From assembly GCA_015061315.1 (NCBI GenBank), contig SUWV01000009.1, positions 19,193-83,192 of the forward strand: a DNA stretch of 64,000 bases, read 5' to 3'. Origin of the DNA: Lentimicrobiaceae bacterium (GTDB lineage: Bacteria; Bacteroidota; Bacteroidia; Bacteroidales; F082). Positions 967-53,372 of the stretch are shown in pieces. The first letter of the stretch is position 1; the number at the start of each line of letters is the position of its first letter. Under the pieces are notes generated by a model that worked only from the letters and a program-made list of their open reading frames with translations, was not told where the DNA came from and did no database searches. A program made the translations under genes and the position numbers.

Positions 967-983
967 AATGCAAAGATAAAAAA

Positions 984-1182
984 AGTCTAAAGTCTAAAGT
1001 CTAAGGTCTAAAGATTTTTTTAAGTCACCGAGTCGCTTAGACAATAAGTCAATAAGACAATAAGTCAATGAGTAGAGAATACGTGAGACATTACACCGAT
1101 AGAAATAAACAAGGTGTAATTGGTGCGTCTCTATATCTTTTCAGATTTTCAGATTCTCAGTTTCTCAGATTTTCAATTTCTC
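984..1182. repeat. composite intergenic repeat, copy A (AGTCTAA x4 / GACAATAAGTCAATAAG tract / TAGAGA hairpin / CAGATTYT x5)
   Basis: (AGTCTAA)n lies at 984-1013 and the GTCAATAAG-type tract at 1040-1073. The hairpin is TAGAGAATACGTGAGACATTACACC (1073-1097) ... GGTGTAATTGGTGCGTCTCTA (1113-1133), with a perfect 8-bp ATTACACC/GGTGTAAT core. The CAGATTYT tract lies at 1142-1182. Confidence 0.8.
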
Positions 1183-34897: not shown

Positions 34898-34938
34898 CAA
34901 ATTATCATTTTGTGAATGGCTTGCTTCTAAAAAAAAAT

Positions 34939-34946
34939 TATCTTTG
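34939..34946 (+). promoter_or_regulatory. -7 box TATCTTTG upstream of HMG-CoA reductase
   Basis: A perfect TAnnTTTG 38 nt upstream of the ATG at 34984. It lies inside the longer GTG-initiated ORF, which supports the shorter start. Confidence 0.6.
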
Positions 34947-34983
34947 CAGAAACAGTAGTAAAGGCTTAAAATATATACAGATA

Positions 34984-36312
34984 ATGAGAAAAATAACACA
35001 TATTAGAAAAGGCTTTTCCAAGCTTCTCAAGGAAGATAAATTGAAAGCTGTTGCGGAATGTGTGAAGAACCCGTCTGAGTTTATTTCCTTATTGAAGAGT
35101 TTCTGGCATTCCGACGAGGAGAAACAGAAACAATTTGATGAGTTCAGCGAGAACACTATTTCTAATTTTCATGTCCCTTACGGCGTATCTCCCAATGTGA
35201 TTATCAATGATGAAACGTATATCGTTCCTATGGTTATTGAAGAAAGCTCTGTCGTGGCAGCAGCATCGGCAGCGGCGAAGTTCTGGGGCGACAGAGGTGG
35301 CTTCCATGCAGAAATAGTTGATGTGAAAAAAGTAGGTCAGGTGCATTTCTGCTGGAAAGGAGAGAAAGACACTTTGACAAAACTGATGCCCGACATCAAG
35401 GCTGAGCTTCTGAAAAACACTGCTTCCATCACAGAGAAAATGGAGAAACGCGGCGGCGGAATATTGGATATTGAACTCATCGATTTCACCGATAAGATAG
35501 ATAACTATTATCAGCTTCGCGTCACCTTCAACACCTGCGACTCCATGGGCGCTAACTTCATCAATTCTATCTTGGAAAACTTCGGTCATAGCTTGCAAGA
35601 CTTCTTCTTACGTCAGGATAATTTGAAAGAAGACGAGAGAGAAGTCGAGATTGTGATGTGTATCTTGTCGAATTATACTCCCGAATGTTTAGTGAAGGTT
35701 TGGGTTGAATGTGACGTGAAACAGTTAGATGGCGTCGATGAAAAACTCGATGGCAAGGCTTTCGCCGAGAAATTCAAGAAAGCTGTCGATATTGCACACG
35801 TCGACGTATATCGCGCTACCACTCATAACAAAGGAATTTATAACGGCATCGACGCCGTCGTCATCGCGACAGGCAACGACTTCCGTGCGGTAGAAGCAGC
35901 AGGACATTCCTACGCCGCAAGAAACGGTCGCTACGAAAGTCTTTCATACGTCGAAATTAAAGATGATATTTTCAGATTTACCTTGGAAGTACCACTCGCT
36001 CTCGGCACCGTCGGCGGATTGACATCCTTACATCCTCTTGCAAAACAATCGCTCGAGCTCATGGGTAATCCTTCGGCAAGACAGCTTATGATGATAGCTG
36101 CGACAATGGGACTCGCCAATAATTATGCTGCCGTTAAGTCACTAACAACAAAAGGAATACAACAAGGACACATGAAGATGCACCTCGCCAATATCCTCAA
36201 TCAGCTTGGAGCGACAGAAAATGAAAAGACATTGGCGATAGAATATTTTAAAGATAAAATCGTTTCTTATTCTGAAGTAGAGAAATTTTTACAATTAATA
36301 ATAACCAAATAG
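34984..36312 (+). CDS. mvaA: hydroxymethylglutaryl-CoA reductase, class II
   Basis: EESSVVAAAS, CDSMGANFIN and LGTVGG are class II HMGR signatures. It is followed by other mevalonate-pathway genes. Confidence 0.9.
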   Translation: MRKITHIRKGFSKLLKEDKLKAVAECVKNPSEFISLLKSFWHSDEEKQKQFDEFSENTISNFHVPYGVSPNVIINDETYIVPMVIEESSVVAAASAAAKFWGDRGGFHAEIVDVKKVGQVHFCWKGEKDTLTKLMPDIKAELLKNTASITEKMEKRGGGILDIELIDFTDKIDNYYQLRVTFNTCDSMGANFINSILENFGHSLQDFFLRQDNLKEDEREVEIVMCILSNYTPECLVKVWVECDVKQLDGVDEKLDGKAFAEKFKKAVDIAHVDVYRATTHNKGIYNGIDAVVIATGNDFRAVEAAGHSYAARNGRYESLSYVEIKDDIFRFTLEVPLALGTVGGLTSLHPLAKQSLELMGNPSARQLMMIAATMGLANNYAAVKSLTTKGIQQGHMKMHLANILNQLGATENEKTLAIEYFKDKIVSYSEVEKFLQLIITK

Positions 36313-36420: not shown

Positions 36421-37419
36421 ATGAATTGTTTTAAATCGAACGGTAAATTTTTATTGACGGGAGAGTATCTCGTTTTGAAGGGCGCTACTGCTTTGGCTCT
36501 TCCCTTGGCATTAGGACAGAGCATGGAGGTAGAAATTTTAGGCTCCAACGATGGCAGGATTTATTGGGAAGCGCTTTTGAAGCCTGCGGTCAATGGTTTA
36601 TGGTCTACAGACATCGTTCATAGTGAAATACCTTGGTTTAAGGTTGTTTTAGACAAAAGAGATTTTAGTGTTGTTGCGACTGACGACAAGGAAAGAGCTG
36701 AGCGTTTGTCGGATATATTATCGAAGGCTAAGAGACTGAACGAAACTCTTTTTGATGAGCCGAGCGACTATAAATTCTGCACATATTTGGATTTCGACCC
36801 GCACTGGGGTCTGGGCAGCAGCTCCACCTTAATTAATAATATAGCCGAATGGGCTAATATAAATCCTTATCTTTTGTTGGACGAGACTTTCAAAGGCTCT
36901 GGCTACGACATAGCATGCGCTAAGGCGGAAGCACCAATCTTTTATCAAATCAACGAATCGACAGGACAAAGAGTCAATGAGTCGAGAGCGGCAAACTTCA
37001 ATCCTTCTTTTAAAGATAATATTTACTTTATATATCAAGGTCATAAGCAAAATTCTGCCAATGAAGTAAAGGCTTTCTTGGATAAGAAGAAAAATTATGA
37101 TAGAGAAATTAAATCGATCAGCGAGATCAGCAGAATTATTCCTGACATACAGACACTCAGTGATTTCAATTATTTCATCAAAGTTCATGAAGAGATAATG
37201 TCGAGCTGCTTAGAACGTAAACGCATAAAAAAACATTTCAACGATTTTGAAGGTGAGATGAAATCGCTCGGAGCATGGGGCGGCGATTTCTTCATGGCAG
37301 CCACAGAATGGGACGATGATAAAGTAATTGAATATTTTAGAAATAAAGGACTTGATGTTATTTTCAAATATAACGACATAATATTAAATCGTGAAATTGA
37401 AAAAACTCTAACCCTTTAA
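36421..37419 (+). CDS. GHMP-family kinase, probable phosphomevalonate kinase (ERG8-like)
   Basis: GKFLLTGEYLVLKGATALALP at the N-terminus, the GHMP motif HWGLGSSSTL, and the operon context. Confidence 0.6.
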   Translation: MNCFKSNGKFLLTGEYLVLKGATALALPLALGQSMEVEILGSNDGRIYWEALLKPAVNGLWSTDIVHSEIPWFKVVLDKRDFSVVATDDKERAERLSDILSKAKRLNETLFDEPSDYKFCTYLDFDPHWGLGSSSTLINNIAEWANINPYLLLDETFKGSGYDIACAKAEAPIFYQINESTGQRVNESRAANFNPSFKDNIYFIYQGHKQNSANEVKAFLDKKKNYDREIKSISEISRIIPDIQTLSDFNYFIKVHEEIMSSCLERKRIKKHFNDFEGEMKSLGAWGGDFFMAATEWDDDKVIEYFRNKGLDVIFKYNDIILNREIEKTLTL

Positions 37420-37452: not shown

Positions 37453-38472
37453 ATGAATAATCAGATAATAAAACATAGTCCATCTAATATCGCAATAGTA
37501 AAATATTGGGGCAAACACGGAAATCAACTTCCTAATAATCCGTCTATCAGTTTTACCTTAAGTAATTGCTTTACAGAAACGAAAATAACTTACAGCAATA
37601 TAGATTCTCAGTTTTTCAAATCCTCAGATTCTCAGATTTCTTTAGATTTCTTTTTTGAAGGAAAGGAAAATCAAGCTTTTAAAGATAAGATAGAGAAGTT
37701 TATTCTGAAGAACGAACAATATTTTTCTTTCTTAAAAGGGCTTCATCTGAATATTGAAAGTCGCAATTCTTTTCCACATTCTTCTGGCATCGCTTCGAGT
37801 GCATCATCTATGAGTGCATTGGTAATGTGCTTATTAGGAATTAAATATAAAGACAGAGAGATTGATTTACAGGAGGCTTCATTTCTTTCAAGATTAGCAT
37901 CGGGCAGTGCAGCTCGTTCTGTATATCCGACAATGACCTTGTGGGGGAAAACTCCAACATTGTCGAATAGTTCCGATGAGTACGCCATTCCTATAGGCGA
38001 TATGATAGCACCAGTCTTCAAGTCATATCACGACACAATATTGATTGTCAGCTCAAAGGAAAAAAGTGTTTCAAGCCGCGCTGGTCATTCCTTGATGGAA
38101 AATCACCCTATGGCAGAAAGTCGTTACGCCACAGCAAGAAAAAATACTGAAGATTTATTGACGATTTTAAAACAAGGCGACATAGAAGGTTTTATAAAAA
38201 TAGCCGAAGCTGAAGCTAATCAGCTGCACGATTTAATGGCAACATCAAAGCCTTCATATACTCTCAAAGAACCTAATACTATTAATATCATTAATAAAAT
38301 TTTAGAATTTAGAAAAGACACTTCTCTTCCAATATGTTATACATTAGACGCTGGTCCTAACGTACATCTTCTCTATCCTGATTTCTGCGCCGATAAGGTT
38401 CAGCTCTTCATTGAAGACGTGTTGAAAGACTATTGTTTTGATAATAAATATATCGAGGATAAGGTTGGATGA
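37453..38472 (+). CDS. mvaD: diphosphomevalonate decarboxylase
   Basis: SPSNIAIVKYWGK, FPHSSGIASSASS and YTLDAGPNVH are MVD signatures. Confidence 0.9.
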   Translation: MNNQIIKHSPSNIAIVKYWGKHGNQLPNNPSISFTLSNCFTETKITYSNIDSQFFKSSDSQISLDFFFEGKENQAFKDKIEKFILKNEQYFSFLKGLHLNIESRNSFPHSSGIASSASSMSALVMCLLGIKYKDREIDLQEASFLSRLASGSAARSVYPTMTLWGKTPTLSNSSDEYAIPIGDMIAPVFKSYHDTILIVSSKEKSVSSRAGHSLMENHPMAESRYATARKNTEDLLTILKQGDIEGFIKIAEAEANQLHDLMATSKPSYTLKEPNTINIINKILEFRKDTSLPICYTLDAGPNVHLLYPDFCADKVQLFIEDVLKDYCFDNKYIEDKVG

Positions 38473-38536
38473 GGAATGAAGAATGTAGAATGTAGAATGA
38501 AGAATGTAGAATGGTTAATGCTTATTGACTTATATC

Positions 38537-39475
38537 ATGAACAAACAATATCACGGCAAATTAATATTATTCGGCGAATATTCTATGATATTCGGTTCTG
38601 AGGCTTTGCTGATGCCGTATTACTCTGTTGGCGGAGAATGGACATCTGTCATAAATCGTCCATCGGAAAGAGCCTTTGAATCTAACGCTAATATTCGTAA
38701 GTATTACGATTATCTTTGTGATGACGACGACTTTAGGATTCTTGATCTGAGACGTTTCGGTATGGAGCTTGACGCCGGCTTATATTTCGATTCTAATATT
38801 CCTTTCGGTTATGGCGTAGGCAGCTCTGGCGCATTGACAGCGGCTATCTATGATCGTTATAAGTTAATAGAAATTAAGGATATTTGTAGATTGAAGAAAT
38901 TTCTTGCTAAGATGGAGAATTTCTTTCATGGCAGCAGCTCTGGCATCGACCCATTGCAATGTTATCTCGGGAAGCCGTTTGTGTTAAGACAACAGGACAA
39001 CGAGTCAACAAGTCAACGAGTTATAGAGAGTCAGTCTCCAATGGTAGAAATCTTGAATGATGACTTTATGTCAGACGATATTCACATTTTCTTGATTGAT
39101 ACCGAAATAAAAAGTCCGACAGCTCCTTTAGTGCAGCATTTCAAGGAGTTGAGAAAAGATGAAGCATATCTAAATAAATTCGATAATGATTATATTCCTT
39201 TGATAAGCAACTGCATCGCGACACTAATCGATAAGAAAGATGAAGATTTCTTCAATTATCTCTCACAGCTTTCTCAGATGCAAATTGAGTTGTTGTCGCA
39301 TACTATTCCAGAAGCTACAAGACCTTATTTCTTAAAAAATATTAAGGATGATGGTTTTCAGGTGAAATTATGTGGTGCTGGTGGCGGTGGCTATCTCTTA
39401 GGATTTTGTAAAGATATTGATAAAATCAATAATTTTTGGAATGATTTTGGTAATAAAATCGTCTGGGTAAAATAA
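38537..39475 (+). CDS. mvk: mevalonate kinase (GHMP family)
   Basis: GKLILFGEYSMIFGSEAL, the GHMP motif PFGYGVGSSGALTAA and C-terminal KLCGAGGGGY. The ATG at 38537 is preferred over the TTG at 38525. Confidence 0.75.
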   Translation: MNKQYHGKLILFGEYSMIFGSEALLMPYYSVGGEWTSVINRPSERAFESNANIRKYYDYLCDDDDFRILDLRRFGMELDAGLYFDSNIPFGYGVGSSGALTAAIYDRYKLIEIKDICRLKKFLAKMENFFHGSSSGIDPLQCYLGKPFVLRQQDNESTSQRVIESQSPMVEILNDDFMSDDIHIFLIDTEIKSPTAPLVQHFKELRKDEAYLNKFDNDYIPLISNCIATLIDKKDEDFFNYLSQLSQMQIELLSHTIPEATRPYFLKNIKDDGFQVKLCGAGGGGYLLGFCKDIDKINNFWNDFGNKIVWVK

Positions 39476-45008: not shown

Positions 45009-46778
45009 ATGATGAAACATTACAACATACCGATTTTTTTACCCGAACTCGCTTGCCCTTATCGCTGCGTTTATTGTAATCAATTTAGCATTACGGGAAA
45101 TGACGATATTGTAAAACCTGAAGATGTTAAGAATATAATCGACAGCCACTTAGCTTCTTTTAAAGAAGAAAATCGTTTCGTGGAAGTGGCTTTCTTCGGT
45201 GGTAATTTCACCGGACTTCCTGTCAAAATGCAAAACGATTATCTTGAAGTGGTGCAGCCTTATCTTGATAAAAATCTCATTCACGGTATTCGTTGTAGCA
45301 CTCGCCCCGATTATATCTCGCTTCAGCGTGTTAAAGAAATTAAACATCTCGGTATGCGTAACATCGAACTCGGAGCACAAAGCACTAACGACGAAGTTCT
45401 GAAACATTGTAAACGTGGTCATACTTACAACGACATCGTTGAGGCATCGCAGATAATTCTTTCCGAAGGAATTACGTTGGGACTACAAATGATGATAGGT
45501 CTTCCTTACGATTCTGAAGAGAAGGATTTTCAGACAGCAAAAGATATAGTAAATCTCGGAGCTAAAGAGACTCGCATCTATCCTTGTATCGTAGTGAAGG
45601 ACACTGAGTTAGAGGCTTTATATCGTAATGGAGATTATAAAGCTCTTTCTATCAATGAAGCTGTAAGTCGTTCTTCAAAATTATATTCTTATTTTATTGA
45701 AAATCAAGTTAAAGTTTTAAGAATAGGTCTGCATCAATCTGATGAGTTGGATAAAGAAGGTTACGTTGCCGGTCCATATCACAAGAATTTTGCTGAGATG
45801 GTTTTCTCTCATATCTGGAAAGAGAAGTTTGAGAATCTGAAAATCTCAGAATCTGAAAACCTGAAAAAAGACATAATAATCAATGTGCCTGCATCGCAGA
45901 TAAATCACGCTATAGGATGGAATGGCGAGAATAAGAGAATGTTGTTAGATCGATTTGATAAAGTAGAGTTTAAGGCTAATGACAAAAGACAAAAGACAAA
46001 AGATGAAGATGATGATTTTACGTTTACCATCACTACAAAAGACGAGCTTCCGACAATTATCGCTGATTCGAGAATGCCAGAGGATGCGAAGAAAAATCTG
46101 AAGAAATTAGGAAACGTCCTTTTCATCAATCCTACTTCTGTGACTTATAATTCAATATCTTCACATCCAGATATTTTCTTCTTTCAAAAAGACGATGCTT
46201 TGATTTATGCGCCCAATGCTCCGAAAAGAATAGTCAAGGAATTGAAGAAGCGAAAGATAAAACTCATCGAAGGCAAGAAAGAAGTCGGGAAGAAATATCC
46301 GGAGACGGTTCCTTATAACGCAGTCGGAATTGGAAATCTGTTGATACATAATTTAAAACATACCGACGAGACGATTTTGTCATCTTACGAAAATCACATA
46401 AATGTTAATCAAGGATATACGCGATGTAATCTTTTGGCTTTGAATGAAAATGCGTTTATCACGTCAGATGTTGGCATTTTCAATGTAGTCAACAGTCAAC
46501 AGACAACAGACAACAGTCTTTATCCACACGAATCTCTTGTAGGTACGTCCATATTGTACATCGACCCAAAACAAATTAAATTGGAAGGTCAGAAAAACGG
46601 ATTTTTCCCAGGCTGTTGCGGCGTTTGGAAAAACAATCTTATCGTTTGTGGCAGCACAAAAAATCTAAAAGAGAAAGCCGAATTAGATAAATTCTTGAAA
46701 GATAATAATTTCAATCTCATTGAATTATACGACGGAGATTTGATTGATGTGGGAAGCGTTTTTTCAATTGACAATTAA
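45009..46778 (+). CDS. radical SAM (ELP3-like) protein fused to a C-terminal domain of unknown function, possibly DUF6873/GME-fold-like
   Basis: The N-terminus has CPYRCVYCNQ (CxxxCxxC) and a radical SAM core of about 300 aa. The C-terminal 240 aa or so contains SSHPDIFFF and other features that I only tentatively associate with the DUF6873 family. Confidence 0.6.
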   Translation: MMKHYNIPIFLPELACPYRCVYCNQFSITGNDDIVKPEDVKNIIDSHLASFKEENRFVEVAFFGGNFTGLPVKMQNDYLEVVQPYLDKNLIHGIRCSTRPDYISLQRVKEIKHLGMRNIELGAQSTNDEVLKHCKRGHTYNDIVEASQIILSEGITLGLQMMIGLPYDSEEKDFQTAKDIVNLGAKETRIYPCIVVKDTELEALYRNGDYKALSINEAVSRSSKLYSYFIENQVKVLRIGLHQSDELDKEGYVAGPYHKNFAEMVFSHIWKEKFENLKISESENLKKDIIINVPASQINHAIGWNGENKRMLLDRFDKVEFKANDKRQKTKDEDDDFTFTITTKDELPTIIADSRMPEDAKKNLKKLGNVLFINPTSVTYNSISSHPDIFFFQKDDALIYAPNAPKRIVKELKKRKIKLIEGKKEVGKKYPETVPYNAVGIGNLLIHNLKHTDETILSSYENHINVNQGYTRCNLLALNENAFITSDVGIFNVVNSQQTTDNSLYPHESLVGTSILYIDPKQIKLEGQKNGFFPGCCGVWKNNLIVCGSTKNLKEKAELDKFLKDNNFNLIELYDGDLIDVGSVFSIDN

Positions 46779-53240: not shown

Positions 53241-53372
53241 CAGTCTAAAGTCTACGGATTATTTAAGTCAATAAGTAGAGACGTGACACATTACACCTGT
53301 AAAAATGAAAGAGATGTAATTGGTGCGTCTCTCATTGTTTCTCAGATTCTCAGATTTTCAATTTCTCAGATT
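53241..53372. repeat. composite intergenic repeat, copy B (AGTCTAA tract / TTAAGTCAATAAG / TAGAGACG hairpin / CAGATTYT tract)
   Basis: Colinear with 984-1182. The hairpin is TAGAGACGTGACACATTACACC (53276-53297) ... GATGTAATTGGTGCGTCTCT (53313-53332). Confidence 0.8.

Follow-up and report, generated by a model that had tools for sequence, protein, structure and literature searches.

The window considered here is the whole stretch of 64,000 nucleotides that was analysed, and it carries a cluster of genes of the mevalonate pathway with the following members.

34912-36312, HMG-CoA reductase, flanking the kinase coding sequence (Pfam/NCBIfam)
36421-37419, + strand, coding sequence of a GYDIA-family GHMP kinase of 332 aa, putative phosphomevalonate kinase (PMK; NCBIfam NF040656, pathway neighbours and AF2 fold)
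37453-38472, diphosphomevalonate decarboxylase, flanking the kinase coding sequence (Pfam/NCBIfam)
38525-39475, mevalonate kinase (mvk), in the same cluster (Pfam/NCBIfam)

The product of 36421-37419 is matched over its full length by NF040656, a model that NCBIfam labels a 'hypothetical equivalog' (E = 4e-97, 325 bits against a curated cut-off of 225). Its AF2 model (pLDDT 89) has the GHMP-kinase fold, and the closest PDB structures are mevalonate and phosphomevalonate kinases (Foldseek, E down to 2e-13). The match above the curated cut-off, the fold and the mevalonate-pathway context place the protein in the GYDIA family of GHMP kinases, and 'putative phosphomevalonate kinase' is a reasonable label for its predicted activity. 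Divergent MVK and PMVK enzymes have been described in Bacteroidetes (Hayakawa et al., 2017, as cited in PMC6107057). The nearest other species has 77% protein identity to this kinase.

An earlier note on this DNA had drawn attention to positions 36943-36990 as an in-frame copy of an intergenic sequence. The first three of these nucleotides are the codon of Tyr175 (36943-36945), and it is the remainder, 36946-36990, that consists of loop codons and translates to QINESTGQRVNESRA. The complete loop, Q176-N192 (QINESTGQRVNESRAAN), spans 36946-36996 and is followed by the invariant residues F193 and P195. In the AF2 model the repeat tract described below falls on a β-hairpin (strands 173-178 and 185-190, turn 179-184), and it is predicted to lengthen this surface hairpin of the kinase, whose open reading frame remains intact and in frame.

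The tract and the octamer family of the genome

The in-frame relative of an intergenic word tract that had been reported in the kinase is indeed present, with the sequence as described, and its comparison involves three features.

36949-36988, + strand, five degenerate octamers in frame (ATCAACGA ATCGACAG GACAAAGA GTCAATGA GTCGAGAG), a tract that encodes I177-R189 at the hairpin tip
1039-1079, + strand, intergenic T-type octamer array (GACAATAA/GTCAATAA/GTCAATGA) ending in a recurrent AGTAGAGA junction to a hairpin, the comparison sequence of the earlier note
38988-39027, + strand, well-preserved in-frame octamer array in mvk (36/40 to the consensus), the positive control

The 23-mer ACAAAGAGTCAATGAGTCGAGAG of the kinase occupies 36966-36988. 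Its similarity to the intergenic sequence is real, with an exact 11-mer core (AGTCAATGAGT), although the identity is 19/23 instead of the 20/23 or so that had been counted, and the partner lies at 1057-1079 instead of 1056-1078. When up to four mismatches are allowed, the PMK site is the sole non-self match to the 23-mer within the 64-kb window, and none of 60 Markov-2 simulations of the window gave any match at that threshold; a pattern search with up to three mismatches recovered the query alone. BLAST against the genome rates the pair formed by the kinase and the spacer at 1057 at E = 6.9, and the pair taken alone is borderline. Given this weakness of the pairwise statistics, reliance was moved to tests at the level of the repeat family, where the formal check of significance gave a clear answer.

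The family is a dispersed tandem repeat with an 8-bp unit, GWCAAYRA, and a 7-bp sister form, GWCAACA. Its heptamer GTCAACA is a cyclic permutation of the cyanobacterial STRR3 (CAACAGT). The target genome (G000, a 95%-complete assembly) contains 110 arrays by a strict definition (at least three units), 310 loci that score at least 32/40, and 327 arrays by a looser rule. For the array in mvk, BLAST gives more than 700 matches across the genome, the best at E = 1.65e-9; its nhmmer E is 1.3e-6, and TRF reports a period of 8. The tract in PMK agrees with GWCAAYRA, unit by unit, at 7+5+7+8+5 = 32 of 40 positions (37/48 when the preceding unit is added), and two of its five units match at 5/8 only. 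TRF, run with a minimum score of 30 on 36880-37040, reported no tandem repeat, and for lack of head-to-tail repetition detectable by that program the tract is not an SSR or LSSR in the strict sense. The best BLAST matches of the kinase loop in the genome fall within arrays; at one of them, C29:103393-103418, the identity is 23/26, all three mismatches are silent when read in the frame of the kinase, and the translation contains NESTGQRV. An irregular join, ...CAG/GACAA.GAGTCAA, is common to the kinase tract, the mvk array and intergenic arrays.

It could be argued that a loop of low complexity, made of polar residues (N, E, S, T, Q, R) and encoded in an AT-rich genome, would resemble the repeat by chance, and the score of the tract was therefore set against several null models. 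When all long ORFs of the genome were codon-shuffled, 0.1 loci scored 32/40 or better, compared with 131 observed, and the maximum in 800 kb from two family-free congeners was 29/40. Residue-shuffled recodings with the codon usage of the genome reached the observed score in 0 of 5000 trials, while synonymous recodings of the true peptide reached 37/48 in only 1% of trials, which implies that it is the DNA, beyond the peptide alone, that is repeat-like. Against an nhmmer profile for which 100 arrays outside coding sequences were used, the tract obtained 10.9 bits (E = 0.97 genome-wide, rank 467 of 490). Between 9.9 and 11.9 bits there were 18 matches, compared with 0.6 per shuffled-ORF replicate, and shuffled ORFs gave 0.2 matches per genome at the score of the tract. 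The natural-sequence control was less favourable: one match of 13 bits, above the PMK tract, was found in the 800 kb of family-free DNA, which when scaled up corresponds to approximately 3 chance matches per genome at 10.9 bits or more. The false-discovery rate for the tract is estimated at about 3% by shuffled ORFs and about 10% by the natural control. The notion of chance can appeal to the E of 6.9 for the pair, the negative TRF result, the nhmmer E of 0.97 and the 13-bit control match, and all of these also weigh against the reading preferred here. Nevertheless, the tract consists of consecutive GWCAAYRA/GWCAACA units beyond what chance produces in these null models. Coincidence is very improbable, and is largely refuted once the orthologous loops described in the next section are considered, since sister species have perfect arrays at the same place and their indels come in three-unit steps.

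Within the long ORFs of G000 the arrays are strongly oriented, 75 being in the sense and 5 in the antisense direction (p = 4e-17). The T-type units, which create stops, make up 12% of units in long ORFs and 28% elsewhere (p = 1e-9), and C-type units are the majority in arrays within ORFs. This depletion makes a stop-free C-type source of the kinase loop likelier than the repair of TAA and TAG. The change from GACAACGA to GACAAAGA is a single synonymous one, and it is to units of the stop-free C type that the tract has its best matches in the genome. In the reading frame of the kinase, the stop triplets TAA and TAG of the spacer do stand at the positions of AGA and TCG in the gene, in line with the earlier note, but the proposal that these stops were mutated into sense codons is not needed.

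Sense arrays inside ORFs, some of which contain several, are found at C23:20134-20277, C37:1879-2889, C31:101281-101627 and C38:57931-58130, and one of the in-ORF arrays of G000 is 144 nt long (18 units) in a predicted ORF of 1053 aa. In other long ORFs the hairpin head AGTAGAGAC(G) comes after an array without a break in the frame (C1:18333, C11:17812, C11:18480, C20:20286, C33:34147, C37:2858 and C40:941), and the peptides end in TSRDAS, TSRDVTH or similar sequences; other genes of G000 may thus be translated through whole composites of array and hairpin. Two more families of tandem-repeat words occur beside hairpins, the heptamer AAAGTCT and the octamer TTCTCAGA (window positions 982-1009, 1138-1183 and 53339-53370).

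Another explanation of the kinase tract is that an element made of a word tract and a GTAG-headed hairpin, as at 984-1182, was inserted, that its junction can still be recognised (GAGTCGAGAG, derived from GAGTAGAGA) and that the stops were mutated later. The junction between arrays and AGTAGAGAC does recur, as 20 sites of the genome (the PMK site among them) lie within four mismatches of the 23-mer, and the array plus its junction is read in frame elsewhere, as the TSRDAS and TSRDVTH peptides attest. At PMK, however, there is neither a hairpin nor a second arm: the DNA of 36935-37005 folds at -3.7 kcal/mol (z = 0.31), no more stably than 113 of 200 shuffled versions. Apart from GT.GAGA there is no match to the hairpin arm, and the downstream bases encode the conserved FNP motif of all orthologues. 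A retained hairpin junction, as read in the earlier note, is not supported. The identification of GTCGAGAG with that junction fares little better, because its agreement with GTAGAGAC (6/8), which favours insertion of a composite, hardly exceeds its agreement with the repeat unit (5/8) and fails to discriminate between the two. The conversion of TAA to AGA would have taken two changes, while one is enough to reach AGA from the CGA of the common C-type unit. Insertion of a composite element is consequently improbable, and the age of the supposed junction, discussed below, also speaks against it.

The homologous loop in related genomes

A comparison of 44 loci identifies the loop as a hypervariable site flanked by two conserved strands, PIFY and F-x-P-x-F. 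Most of the genus has a loop of 13 aa, and in one subclade (support 100/99) it is mostly one of 17-18 aa; the loop of the target is four residues longer than the base form of the genus and eight longer than that of L036 (Lentimicrobiaceae MAG SIG106). The alignment of orthologues that had been suggested as a check thus shows extra sequence in the target; between the target and L036 there is one clean gap of 24 nt, with flanks that are 85% identical and a placement that slides by a few bases.

36946-36969, + strand, 24 nt (three units, QINESTGQ) in the target and absent from L036 (pairwise DNA alignment)

The remainder of the tract, AGAGTCAAYGAGTCGAGAGC, is common to both sequences. Positions 36970-36988, the bulk of the 23-mer of the earlier note, are present in L036 and are consequently old; they predate the split from L036 and are no recent copy of the spacer at 1057. 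They include the part that the composite-element explanation regards as a junction, and its age counts against that explanation. Taken alone, the part shared with L036 (GTCAAYGA GTCGAGAG) is below significance. A second pair of orthologues, L037 and L047, is separated by a clean gap of 21 nt, that is, three heptamers, and the two gaps together indicate that the length of the loop shifts in three-unit steps that preserve the frame.

In other relatives the repeat is much better preserved. In L003, L032 and L033 this loop contains a perfect (GTCAACA)x3 array, and in L005 and L034 it contains four GWCAACA heptamers; genome-wide pattern searches landed on exactly these loop arrays. To judge by these loci, the homologous position in relatives is held by clear members of the family. 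Several members of the subclade (L041-L044 and L046) have an 18-aa loop without a repeat signature. In the gene tree of the kinase the subclade is strongly supported and the backbone lacks resolution; the 24-nt difference may accordingly be a gain or a loss, and one or several separate events may be involved. The orthologues L036 and L037 do without 6-8 of the loop residues, so the hairpin extension is dispensable for the kinase family, and we infer that it is neutral in the target's own enzyme.

The 24-nt difference has an internal counterpart, in the form of a word that occurs twice in the loop.

36950-36964, + strand, first copy of TCAAYGARTCGASAG (word search, whole genome)
36974-36988, + strand, second copy of TCAAYGARTCGASAG, within the part of the tract common to L036

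These are the only 2 occurrences of TCAAYGARTCGASAG in the whole genome; they are 24 nt apart, and both have the rare TCG variant (28 sites, compared with 496 of the standard form). The paired copies suggest an internal duplication, and it could be proposed that the native loop (RVNESRAA, as in L036, which has exactly one copy of TCAAYGARTCGASAG) was duplicated in tandem by 24 nt independently of the repeat family, its likeness to the octamer being a by-product. Outside the word, however, the two 24-nt periods agree at no more than 2 of their 8 other positions, and the extra 24 nt have hallmarks of the family, including the CAG/GACAA join of the mvk and intergenic arrays and the 23/26 match to C29:103393. 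Furthermore, a period of three octamers is what slippage of the repeat predicts, and to that extent a duplication overlaps with the main reading. A duplication that owes nothing to the family is quite improbable, although part of the 32/40 score could come from a 24-nt duplication within the tract.

The variation within the species was followed in whole-gene contigs of conspecific strains from three other studies (X8, X13 and X18). They differ from the target at 10-14 positions per 999 nt and have no indel in the loop; there are zero changes in 36941-36989, and at 36990 a synonymous G>A is found in X18 only. Neither the length variation nor the frame switching of a phase-variable contingency locus was seen in these three contigs, and rare variants would escape contigs. 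One further contig (X9), which aligns on either side of 36924-36989 and skips these positions, was rejected as a polymorphism, being approximately 84% identical and from another organism.

The hosts of the family are uncultured Bacteroidales/Lentimicrobiaceae from animal guts. Octamer arrays were detected in 15 of the 61 sampled genomes of the genus and heptamer arrays in 13, and the other 46 have none; every genus genome in which an enlarged kinase loop was read falls among those that bear arrays, and five further relatives, reached through their loci, also have them. The ratio of octamers to heptamers is 215:11 in G000, 44:1 in G077 and 62:6 in G018, as opposed to 7:96 in G080, 7:91 in G081, 5:61 in G079 and 6:40 in G006, which amounts to a flip between related genomes, and the preferred unit length appears to be a property of the genome. 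Loops of octamer type occur in the two strongly octamer-dominant genomes, G000 and G077, and heptamer loops occur mostly in heptamer-dominant ones; the correlation between loop and genome is partial, since G018 and G065 are octamer-dominant yet have loops of heptamer type.

Other sequences have been accommodated at this loop as well. In three congeners (L011:1501-2472, L012 and L015, from G008, G022 and G007, respectively) it has an in-frame insert of 19 aa, ALRQAQGPKVVEPVETP, whose DNA is strongly palindromic (CTTCGACAGGCTCAGGG...CCGTCGAA, with folding energies of roughly -30 to -41 kcal/mol) and has 18-26 dispersed copies in those genomes and 0 in G000; a REP/MITE-like element has thus colonised the same β-hairpin independently in another branch of the genus. 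The loop of the closest relative (L002, G004) has 25 aa and contains approximately three tandem copies of another octamer, CCTCAGCG, together with GCAATAAGCAACAG-like debris, that is, a second type of repeat at the same site. Finally, in the near-sister species represented by L034 and L039 (G080 and G081, branches of 0.05 and 0.023) 102 of 105 flanking nucleotides are identical, and the 51-nt loop is almost wholly different, with (GWCAACA)x4 in one and degenerate GTCAGNN heptamers in the other, which would reflect either wholesale replacement or very fast turnover of the tract.

Origin of the tract and relation to known repeats

The reading that best accommodates these results, with a probability of roughly 80%, is that the GWCAAYRA repeat, whose sister form is GWCAACA, is represented at 36949-36988 by a decayed tract that is in frame and lodged in codons for the tip of a surface β-hairpin. 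It is the orthologous loops, with their perfect arrays, their three-unit steps and a family limited to the subclade, that settle the assignment to the family. The tract would have entered the kinase loop, or grown in it, in an ancestor of the subclade, and would have altered by slipped-strand or recombinational steps, of which only the three-unit, stop-free, sense-strand outcomes would survive in an essential gene. Point substitutions would later have broken up the repeat in the lineage of the target and stabilised its length, in keeping with the constant length in conspecific strains; the polar peptide INESTGQR-VNESRAAN would merely extend the hairpin and be near-neutral for the enzyme. The tract is, on this reading, a decayed relic and no active SSR. 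Points against it, besides the weak search scores, are the two units at 5/8, the low score of the part shared with L036, the possible contribution of a duplication, the poorly resolved backbone of the gene tree and the 18-aa loops of the subclade that lack a repeat signature.

A more far-reaching idea, though an unlikely one, is that the dispersed 7/8-nt arrays, including those in essential genes, are kept in step by a templated process (gene conversion or re-copying between arrays), by which the codons of the β-hairpin would be repeatedly overwritten with the unit that currently dominates the genome. Hints in this direction are the match of unit type in G000 and G077 and in the heptamer loops, the different loops of L034 and L039 between flanks that are 97% identical, and the independent colonisation of the same kinase loop by at least three types of repeat across the genus.

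The notion of a decayed tract can be compared with several systems that are known in bacteria. Long SSRs with units of 5-11 nt have been described in prokaryotes (Mrazek et al., 2007, as cited in PMC4679880), and the latter source mentions heptamer STRR arrays in cyanobacteria and TAACTGA heptamers in Beggiatoaceae, Cyanobacteria and a few Bacteroidetes. The same source gives slippage as the accepted route by which SSRs change in length and states that SSRs in coding regions have mainly unit lengths in multiples of three (PMC4679880). The family of G000 resembles long SSRs in that its head-to-tail arrays of 7-8 nt are dispersed, mostly intergenic, patchy across lineages and unexplained in their spread. 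It departs from them in that 7- and 8-nt units stand in frame in dozens of ORFs, where three-unit steps are required, and in that the tract in PMK is too decayed for TRF.

Another point of comparison is the Rickettsia palindromic elements (RPEs), small dispersed repeats that lie in frame in unrelated metabolic genes, with their peptide at fold-compatible regions of the surface (PMC10969869). Like these, and like intragenic MITE and REP sequences, the repeat of G000 is tolerated in frame in the loops of metabolic enzymes, and the insert of PMK is extra relative to orthologues with the frame kept. The tract in PMK has no palindrome, however, and it is a tandem tract of approximately 40 nt in place of a discrete element of approximately 150 bp. 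Unlike the case of REP sequences, no cognate Y1 transposase (PF01797, RAYT type/TnpA_REP) was found in the 95%-complete G000 assembly, in a search for which the control genomes were positive. In the congeners with L011, L012 and L015 a true palindromic dispersed element does lie in frame in the same kinase loop. GTAG-headed hairpins are plentiful in G000 itself, despite the lack of a PF01797 match in this incomplete MAG.

With the contingency loci of Haemophilus and Neisseria the tract shares its place in a reading frame and a unit that is not a multiple of three, such that a one-unit slip would be a frameshift. It differs from them in being impure, in lying in a housekeeping gene of the isoprenoid pathway, in the absence of length change in the three conspecific contigs, and in that the differences between orthologues keep the frame. 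A further parallel is in the same cluster, given that the mvk array (38988-39027) belongs to the same family, has the sense orientation, likewise occupies the loop of a mevalonate-pathway GHMP kinase and has the same sub-variant, ACAGGACAA.GAGTCAA. The tract in PMK is the decayed one of the two, with 32/40 versus 36/40, a negative versus a positive TRF result, and an nhmmer E of 0.97 versus 1.3e-6.

As a case of small genomic repeats that are tolerated inside essential genes, the tract is a real yet ordinary further example. Its interest is in part one of calibration, for a tract beyond the reach of TRF and BLAST could be assigned by means of family-level nulls and orthologous loops. At one β-hairpin there is, moreover, a natural series that goes from no insert, through three-unit steps of 21 and 24 nt, to perfect arrays, decayed arrays and, in other congeners, a palindromic element, and it is useful for the study of how non-triplet repeats survive in coding DNA, of protein sites that tolerate insertions and of variation in the length of enzyme loops. 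A warning for annotation also follows: where proteins from these gut Bacteroidales MAGs have loops with peptides like NESTGQRV, DNESTSQQ and VNSQQTTDN, the peptides are derived from repeats and are no functional motifs. The last of these peptides is encoded within the window as well, by a heptamer array (GTCAACA GTCAACA GACAACA GACAACA) at 46488-46515 (G000:C12:65680-65707) in a radical-SAM fusion gene, and it is found likewise in the kinase loop of sister species (L005 and L034).
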